DNA from: a virus
Lineage: Duplodnaviria > Heunggongvirae > Uroviricota > Caudoviricetes
Strand: one strand, 5' to 3'
Virus record (IMG/VR): IMGVR_UViG_2541047502_000012
DNA length: 4,291 nt
The notes under the pieces were generated by a model, which worked only from the letters and a program-made list of their open reading frames with translations, had not been told where the DNA came from and did no database searches. The translations under genes and the position numbers were made by a program. Positions 2,647 through 2,795 of the stretch are shown piece by piece (the first letter of the stretch is position 1; every line of letters starts with the position of its first letter).

Positions 2647-2795
2647 GGGTCGGAAATATATCCAGTATTTCCGAAGTGTATGGAGGATTACCTACCGCTA
2701 CACCCTTGGCAACCGCAAGCCAAGGATAGCGGTTCTCCCAACAAACTACAACCTGTTCGGGTAAACAGGCTGTATACAAAAACAGGAGAAAAGCT

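Follow-up and report, generated by a model that had tools for sequence, protein, structure and literature searches.

What does the hairpin-rich segment at 2647-2800 in the immunity region of a lambdoid Shiga-toxin phage encode, and on which of its strands? The segment lies in a 4,291-nucleotide (nt) stretch of tailed-phage DNA (IMG/VR record IMGVR_UViG_2541047502_000012), referred to here as the window, whose plus strand corresponds to the leftward strand of lambda and to which the sequence of phage SH2026Stx1 is identical across 2600-3000. A first-pass annotation had described the segment as a heavily structured leader upstream of a small open reading frame (ORF) of 44 amino acids (aa), flanked by terminators, and had judged it a self-contained regulatory or RNA element rather than plain spacer. 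The latter judgement is borne out by conservation: our comparisons indicate that the segment is a portable, conserved two-strand regulatory cassette absent from Rfam. The idea of a single plus-strand leader RNA built from three hairpins is not supported: the third hairpin lacks covariation and coincides with an invariant LexA palindrome. We favour, as the probable reading, a cassette in which a LexA-repressed antisense small RNA (sRNA) is combined with a plus-strand leader switch, an arrangement of the lambda OOP or IstR kind.

Inverted repeats and distribution of the element

All of the inverted repeats reported for the segment are present:

2650-2658 and 2666-2674: hairpin 1, a perfect repeat of 9 base pairs (bp)
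2694-2700 with 2727-2733, and 2704-2710 with 2719-2725: composite hairpin, two perfect stems of 7 bp each
2747-2757 and 2764-2774: hairpin 3, arms of 11 nt that are 91% complementary

The flanking terminators also exist as GC hairpins with T-runs, at 2621-2644 and 2946-2969, about 2 nt away from where they had first been placed. Structure prediction, one of the checks proposed at the outset, returned folds far better than those of dinucleotide shuffles on both strands. For the plus strand of 2647-2800 (154 nt) the folding energy was -58.4 kcal/mol, as compared with -35.5 +/- 3.7 for the shuffles (z = -6.3; 0 of 200 as good), and for the minus strand it was -62.8 kcal/mol (z = -5.8). Three points had been overlooked: hairpin 3 has the form CTGT-N8-ACAG, a second motif of this form follows 1 base further on, and the hairpin at 2621-2644 is part of the conserved unit.

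A scan against Rfam, likewise proposed earlier, placed no family on the element. With Rfam 15 and E <= 5, the only matches of the window in 2593-2689 were terminator-driven hits to Phe_leader, rimP and asX2 at 19-21 bits, far under the cut-offs; in 8 homologous loci searched at E <= 0.1 no match fell on the element, those to sok, isrK, C4 and STnc100 lying elsewhere.

The element was found at more than 80 prophage and metagenome loci. A pattern of its invariant blocks, which include GUGUAGCGG and CCUCCAUAC, retrieved 61 IMG/VR contigs (34 distinct variants) as well as four enterobacterial species-representative genomes (Enterobacter, Atlantibacter, Lelliottia and Kluyvera); 26 true metagenome contigs carry the element, and further versions occur in E. 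coli prophages and in Klebsiella phages and prophages. The other pattern matches were due to chance, and a covariance model of the homologues rejected all nine chance loci tested (3 genome, 6 metagenome). Alignment-based counts given below refer to the 34 distinct variants (alignment A1).

The conserved unit runs from the GC hairpin at 2621-2644 to the terminator after the small ORF, and its surroundings change from phage to phage. At least four unrelated genes precede it: an ImmA/IrrE gene, the 177-aa gene of the window (phrog_2602), a family of 146-158 aa and a 305-aa gene. In another E. coli prophage, a 71%-identical element stands 3' of an ImmA/IrrE gene and 5' of a 49-aa ORF with a CxxC...CxC pattern. 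The cassette thus precedes two ORF families, of 44 aa and 49 aa (CxxC), for which a search for mutual homology detected none (hhalign probability 0.6%). Its place in the genome differs too: in the window it lies between the cI operon and PL, and other phages carry it in their nin region.

Predicted minus-strand promoter, candidate small RNA and LexA boxes

The features on which the proposed reading rests are as follows, SL denoting a stem-loop and SD the Shine-Dalgarno sequence:

2723-2751, minus strand: predicted sigma-70 promoter of the candidate sRNA, with -35 TTGTAG (2751-2746), a 17-nt spacer and -10 TATCCT (2728-2723)
about 2716 to 2615, minus strand: candidate sRNA of ~100 nt, predicted to start at ~2716 (G), 7 nt past the -10, and to end in the U-run at ~2613-2617
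2676-2703, minus strand: SL1 region, GUGUA...UACAC, with invariant CUCCAU and GUGUAGCGG, derived from single-sequence folds of the 34 variants; read on the plus strand, it is the AUGGAGG block that can pair with the UCUCC further downstream
2650-2674, minus strand: SL2, identical with hairpin 1, TCGGAAATA-N7-TATTTCCGA
2611-2644, minus strand: SL3, putative intrinsic terminator of the sRNA, a stem (2644-2621) followed by UUUAUUCUUUU
2753-2768: LexA box 1, CTGTTCGGGTAAACAG, identical with hairpin 3 and 1 nt from the -35
2770-2785: LexA box 2, CTGTATACAAAAACAG, overlapping the SD of the ORF 10 nt before its ATG
2751-2787: tandem LexA box region as a whole

The evidence for the predicted minus-strand promoter is comparative. 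It coincides with the right arm of the plus-strand composite hairpin and is the best-scoring promoter at the same alignment column in 32 of the 34 variants, with a mean of 9.6 vs 3.8 for the next best on either strand. Every variant keeps TTGnnn, exactly 17 nt without indels and TAnnnT; the 6-nt discriminator after the -10 is variable, and conservation resumes at the predicted +1 (GUCAA in most variants). The third -10 position is occupied by four different bases across the variants, and as a consequence the helix pair 96-121 is broken in 21 of the 34 sequences.

Folded alone, the candidate sRNA forms a 5' tail, SL1, SL2 and SL3 in nearly all variants. Compensatory changes are found at all 9 pairs of SL2 (8 of 9 when scored as a leader helix; 92-93% of alignment cells paired), evidence that is neutral as to strand, and at 3-4 stem pairs of SL3 (97% paired), while covariation in SL1 is partial (83-87% paired). 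The covariation check foreseen in the first-pass annotation came out differently for each repeat: hairpin 1 covaries, the composite hairpin does so at 2 of its 11 pairs and breaks at 4, half of its pairs failing in many of the homologues, and hairpin 3 does not covary. Over the sRNA alignment as a whole 91-92% of the cells are paired, compared with ~40-50% in slid registers, and 16-17 pairs are compensatory, a degree of covariation that 0 of 500 shuffles reached, although kinship among the homologues means that such shuffle statistics overstate independence. The covariance model matches the window at 2617-2714 on the minus strand (79.5 bits, E = 1e-15) and finds exactly one copy in each true locus at 55-102 bits, held-out sequences included, and none in the chance loci. 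The candidate sRNA stretch contains no AUG and no frame is preserved in it. The locus thus displays the features of a bacterial sRNA gene, a conserved sigma-70 promoter at a constant distance from a structured non-coding segment with a GC hairpin and a U-run at its end; in the proposed reading, this promoter would fire and the RNA would be made. SL3 doubles as the terminator of the 177-aa gene that converges on it, the stop codon of that gene (2620-2622) being directly next to the stem.

Three kinds of strand-sensitive evidence, namely U-tails, G.U as against A.C cells and folding energies, favour a minus-strand RNA. SL3 was detected in a terminator scan of both strands; across the homologues, the 8 nt after its stem held a mean of 5.1 T on the minus strand vs 2.8 on the plus strand. 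Among the non-Watson-Crick cells at the base of SL3, 17 would be G.U only on the minus strand (A.C on the plus strand) and 2 only on the plus strand. Finally, the minus strand folds more stably in 31 of the 34 variants.

Two exact matches to CTGT-N8-ACAG occur in the window, where 0.04 would be expected by chance, and box 1 is present at every homologous locus. Its CTGT and ACAG arms are fixed in the 34 variants save for one base in a single variant (L051), the central N8 varies, and compensatory changes in the arm pairs are absent from all 34 variants. Because the arms are fixed without covariation around a variable core, hairpin 3 bears the signature of a LexA operator and not of an RNA helix. 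Scored with a matrix of E. coli operators, box 2 reached 16.2 and box 1 7.5, with 10-16 for the box of the main type of element, 13-28 for known sites and 5.9 for the 99.9th percentile of the window; the palindromes and the score of box 2 are those of LexA operators, box 1 of the window being weak. LexA would then bind here and repress from just upstream of the -35. In related prophages (L009 4740-5300; L005 3040-3110) the cassette is located within a cluster of small SOS genes, and the umuD-like gene and dinI found there each have a canonical TACTGT-N8-ACAGTA box over the -10, unlike the cassette.

The plus strand and alternative readings

On the plus strand three further features come into play:

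2726-2738: anti-SD block AUAGCGGUUCUCC, complementary to 2785-2797 (GGAGAAAAGCUAU, SD and AUG)
2796-2930: 44-aa cargo ORF, with SD GGAG at 2785-2788 and a match to phrog_21154 (E = 2e-31)
2946-2969: terminator closing the cassette, a GC hairpin with T-run

Both this ORF and an alternative 86-aa frame (2680-2940) exist as first described. The 44-aa frame is the real gene, as indicated by the PHROG match and by 4 synonymous vs 2 non-synonymous differences from locus L043; near-identical proteins occur in Klebsiella and E. coli. It has no match in Pfam, NCBIfam or PADLOC, where the 49-aa ORFs gave sub-threshold matches only, and a PDB sequence search with the 49-aa family returned zinc-ribbon-like noise only (E > 1). 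A GC hairpin with T-run likewise follows the small ORF in those homologous loci whose sequence extends that far.

The anti-SD block and the SD region share a 13-nt complementarity (85%) that is present in the minimum-energy fold. Thermodynamic predictions for a plus-strand read-through RNA give a probability of 1.00 for pairing of the SD with the block in the window, and a mean of 0.63 over the 34 variants; in several of these, as in L004, L035 and L051 (0.8-0.96), the predicted partner of UCUCC is the invariant AUGGAGG further upstream. The models therefore point to an anti-SD with an alternative partner. The SD of every ORF class is complementary to UCUCC, and each class lengthens the match in its own way (UUCUCC:GGAGAA for the window, UCUCCUA:UAGGAGA for the L006 type, GUU-UCCC:GGGAAAC for the main type); TCTCCYAACAA is invariant although it lies inside the promoter spacer (GGTTCTCCYAACAA on the plus strand). 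Since the promoter does not need this invariance and UCUCC can pair with the SD, the plus strand is probably not idle. The leader role assigned to the segment at the outset thus remains plausible as far as the UCUCC:SD pairing goes, but it finds no conserved plus-strand promoter.

The operators, promoter signature, covarying RNA structure, terminator polarity, anti-SD complementarity and modularity are read from sequence and comparison; the direction and target of the regulation may be envisaged as follows. In an undamaged lysogen, the minus-strand promoter abutting two LexA operators would be silent. Upon RecA-mediated cleavage of LexA it would fire, giving an untranslated RNA of ~100 nt (about 2716 to 2615), the sequence of which is perfectly complementary to the last part of the transcript that converges on it from the 177-aa gene and to the front of the read-through RNA that leads toward the 44-aa ORF. 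In this read-through RNA, pairing of UCUCC with the upstream AUGGAGG would leave the ribosome site open, and pairing with the SD and AUG would close it. The sRNA covers the AUGGAGG side, and its binding should therefore lock the ribosome site closed and yield a substrate for RNase III. The net effect of DNA damage would be production of the sRNA, shut-off of the tiny ORF and, probably, destabilisation of the upstream message.

Several observations weigh against this proposal, the kinship among the homologues mentioned above being one of them. Considered in the window alone, the minus-strand promoter has an ordinary score of 8.5, and chance alone would yield ~16 sites of this kind in 8.6 kb. 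Box 1 is weak in the window (7.5), and the LexA box lies at about -37 to -52, upstream of the -35 and not over the -10/+1 as in the canonical SOS promoters of the neighbours. Masking the part complementary to the sRNA lowers predicted SD accessibility from 0.25 to 0.15, and in the window accessibility is already 0.00; the notion of sRNA masking as a strong on/off switch was dropped on account of this weak predicted effect. No conserved plus-strand promoter was found in or beside the element in the 34 variants, which leaves the ORF without a recognisable promoter of its own. The invariance of single-stranded sRNA blocks and of the promoter spacer is not explained by pure cis-antisense action. 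In addition, pair 92-125 of the composite hairpin occurs as GC (13), GU (13) and AU (8) with no A.C, a series that suggests a plus-strand helix at this point.

The last of these observations would be readily accommodated if the segment were solely a cis-regulatory leader, in which the hairpins fold in the mRNA of the 44-aa ORF and govern its translation, whether by sensing temperature, a ligand or a protein or as a kinetic trap; the minus-strand promoter would then be fortuitous or irrelevant. The strong plus-strand fold (z = -6.3) and the covariation of hairpin 1 likewise speak for such a leader, as do the spacer invariance that a promoter alone does not need and the complementarity of invariant UCUCC to the SD of each ORF class, with its alternative GGAG partner upstream. 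We nevertheless regard a leader acting by itself as unlikely. Hairpin 3 is a LexA box without any covariation; of the 11 pairs in the composite hairpin, 4 vary by mismatch only, two of them being unpaired in 17/34 and 21/34 cells; a conserved plus-strand promoter is missing in and next to the element; the hairpin with which the unit begins has the better terminator features on the minus strand; and the invariant TTG, N17, TAnnnT pattern is what a promoter, not a helix, predicts. A conserved TTGACA-like motif in the composite-hairpin loop was considered as a plus-strand -35 and rejected, having no -10 at a sensible spacing; it is better explained as the GUCAA 5' end of the minus-strand RNA.

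The same arrangement can be viewed as a type I toxin-antitoxin-like locus tied to the SOS response, comparable to tisB/istR, dinQ/agrB or symE/symR, with the ORF as a toxin whose ribosome-binding site is locked and the divergent sRNA as its antitoxin. Small ORF, divergent structured sRNA and LexA box do lie in one compact, terminator-bounded unit; long-range pairing is predicted to sequester the ribosome-binding site of the ORF in the long transcript; and the unit keeps company with SOS morons (dinI and the umuD-like gene) and, in related prophages, lies near hok/sok. Four facts make such a locus quite unlikely: hydrophobic stretches are absent from both products (44 aa and 49 aa), the LexA-associated promoter belongs to the sRNA and not to the ORF, one sRNA is common to two unrelated ORFs, and trans complementarity between sRNA and ORF does not exceed that of shuffles in most variants and lies at inconsistent positions. 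The sRNA is fully complementary to the region 5' of the ORF, which is part of the ORF mRNA only if transcription enters from upstream. Trans pairing was sought by whole-length and windowed duplex searches and rejected, since there was no consistent site and energies mostly lay within ~1 standard deviation of the shuffles; those of the L009 group, L003 and L067 stood above the controls, at inconsistent sites.

Control might also be exerted at the DNA level only, the LexA boxes acting as operators of an undetected plus-strand promoter of the 44-aa ORF, itself an SOS moron, and the other repeats being terminators or incidental, with no functional minus-strand RNA. It is the stronger box 2, only 10 nt from the ATG, that overlaps the SD of the ORF, each of the small genes nearby in related prophages has its own LexA box just upstream, and a transcript starting downstream of 2738 would escape the anti-SD block. 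Yet the plus strand around the boxes shows no conserved -10 or -35 of any quality: the highest mean there was 3.2, for a -35 in box 1 with a -10 that places the start inside the ORF. The box flanks ATCTGT and ACCTGT cannot double as a -10, unlike the TACTGT of the neighbours, and the compensatory changes in hairpin 1 and the terminator, together with the minus-strand terminator polarity, would be left unexplained, so that we hold this possibility to be rather improbable. A leaderless mRNA from a -35 TTTACA in box 1 and a -10 beside the ATG was likewise rejected, as its start would fall within the ORF and it would depend on a second ATG, which is absent from several variants.

That the element encodes a protein, in the 86-aa frame or in a minus-strand frame across it, is refuted by comparison and merits hardly any credence: although both frames are open in the window and some frames stay open for ~56 codons in many variants, the 86-aa frame, put forward at first as a possible conserved protein, is not kept in relatives (it closes after 27 codons in the closest one, after 8-15 in the majority of the others and after 38 in two) and matches nothing in PHROG, with a single sub-threshold hit in Pfam (E = 0.13), 1-2 nt indels scattered through the alignment leave no conserved frame across the element, and the stem substitutions are compensatory.

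Known relatives, matched loops and genomic surroundings

The LexA-repressed antisense cassette favoured here is of a kind already known from lambda OOP, from IstR-2 and from other SOS-linked antisense RNAs, whereas the family itself is not in Rfam. Lambda OOP is a 77-nt RNA made from the po promoter and antisense to the 3' end of cII. The oop promoter is reported to carry a LexA site (PMC5869508). Like OOP, the candidate sRNA would be a phage RNA that is short and untranslated, made from a promoter with an associated LexA box and ended by a strong intrinsic terminator, converging on the 3' end of a lysogeny-related gene; because of this layout, antisense action of the RNase III type is to be expected. 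Unlike OOP, it has three hairpins, is coupled to a downstream micro-ORF with an anti-SD, has its LexA box upstream of the -35 and not over the start site, and overlaps the upstream gene by only a few nt. It shows no sequence similarity to OOP and occupies another genome position, the OOP homologue of this phage being the unit at 16-130.

With tisB/istR-1,2, dinQ/agrB and symE/symR, of which IstR-2 is LexA-controlled, the cassette shares a compact build, in which a LexA box and a small ORF accompany a structured sRNA that is divergent or antisense, as well as a ribosome-binding site that is predicted to be masked by long-range pairing. It differs from them in that its ORFs are not hydrophobic, no conserved trans complementarity to the ORF was found, and its LexA-associated promoter is that of the sRNA and not, as far as can be detected, of the ORF. 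Recognition sequences placed in hairpin loops, lineage-variable on a conserved scaffold, recall FinP/traJ, CopA/CopT and the P1/P7 c4 RNA; in contrast to these systems, the two loops of the candidate sRNA are identical in most variants, which those systems do not need, and no separate target copy was found. One related prophage also encodes a C4 RNA at another site.

The loops of the terminator hairpin and of hairpin 1 (A1 columns 16-27 and 50-62; window 2630-2635 vs 2659-2665) have the same 6-10 nt in most variants, and the shared sequence is lineage-specific: CGCTAA, CTCTAA, CTAGGA, TTGACG, CGTCAA, CTTCGAA, CTGAGAA, CTGGAA, CTGCAAA or TTTGCAG. Over 14 classes, the longest shared loop string has a mean of 6.8 nt for an element's own pair vs 3.7 +/- 0.4 when pairs are permuted, and 0 of 5000 permutations reach the observed value. 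Both loops are inverted together in L070 relative to L006; the exceptions to the match are the window itself (AGGGAA vs TATCCAG) and a chimera (L109). A search of each locus for a complementary third copy of the shared sequence found none. GGA loops of the CsrA type and loops resembling tRNA anticodons, both judged by eye, fit some loop classes only and were set aside. One further locus, in Yersinia phage YP3 (3001-3085), comprises the 3' end of a homologue of the 177-aa gene, the terminator hairpin, hairpin 1 and GTGTATGGAGGATTACCTA, with TTTGCAG in both loops; the similarity ends beside the gin invertase gene, and the stretch looks like a remnant of the cassette without promoter or ORF.

Ordinary cis-antisense pairing does not require two identical loops, and our best guess is that they are lineage-specific kissing loops for antisense recognition. 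Taken further, and in a version we put forward as doubtful, the cassette would be a plug-in SOS gate for micro-ORFs whose antisense RNA knows its own leader by two identical kissing loops, the at least 14 loop classes forming orthogonal specificity groups that avoid cross-talk between co-resident prophages. Were this so, it would amount to a small-RNA analogue of heteroimmunity and would tie expression of a moron in the Shiga-toxin-phage immunity region to the induction signal. Whatever their function, the matched loops raise a concrete question about the specificity of RNA-RNA recognition.

If the RNA is made, it would represent an uncatalogued family of SOS-inducible sRNAs in the immunity region of Shiga-toxin-converting phages and in the nin region of many enterobacterial prophages, sites where decisions on lysogeny, induction and defence are wired, and this phage would then have two antisense RNAs under LexA control, OOP being the other. 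The cassette would also be a compact natural design in which an operator, an antisense RNA and an anti-SD switch are re-used before unrelated tiny proteins. More generally, what look like "hairpins" in a phage spacer can turn out to be DNA operators, promoters and stems of RNAs from either strand, all superimposed.

The remaining features of the window are listed below:

16-131, plus strand: homologue of lambda OOP RNA, opposite the 3' end of the CII-like ORF
16-44, plus strand: promoter of the OOP-like unit, TTGAGT-17-CATAAT
48-67: LexA box of the OOP-like unit, TCCTGTGGATTGATCCAGTA, score 13.7, covering the predicted start
98-125: terminator of the OOP-like unit
74-370, minus strand: CII-like ORF, with the OOP-like unit opposite
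477-722, minus strand: cro
783-1520: cI
1558-1818: DUF3024 gene
2089-2622: 177-aa gene (phrog_2602), converging on the candidate sRNA
about 3150: PL
3244-3258: GCGCTGACAAAGCGC, which we take to be a nutL boxB of the P22 type
3378-3719: N gene, with GNAKTRRHERRRKLAIER, presumably a P22-like arginine-rich motif
from 3731: gene with an Nmad5 domain, cut by an insertion sequence (IS) element

The OOP-like unit at 16-130, on which Rfam gave a spurious His_leader match only, is an internal positive control for the layout of promoter, LexA box and terminator.

Upstream of the cassette, loci L003-L006 carry the usual pair, an XRE repressor with an ImmA/IrrE metallopeptidase, which in PADLOC is weakly similar to CapH/CapP; with this pair, a second module that responds to DNA damage would send transcription toward the cassette. 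In the window, the 177-aa gene has a good promoter match of its own (TTGATT-17-TAGTAT, score 11.8, in 2032-2088 on the plus strand), and a terminator-like hairpin with a T-run at 2062-2082, 6 nt upstream of its ATG, may be an attenuator or leader. The DUF3024 gene matches the PADLOC defence-candidate family PDC-S43 (E = 5.5e-31); its product has 86 aa instead of 113 because TAG (1816-1818) replaces the TGG codon for W87 found in SH2026Stx1. Similarly, the ORF with the Nmad5 domain (PF18757) spans profile positions 1-87 of 206 and corresponds to an ORF of 207 aa in SH2026Stx1; since its frame closes at 4048 and orfA of an IS3-family transposase begins at 4054, the gene appears to be truncated.

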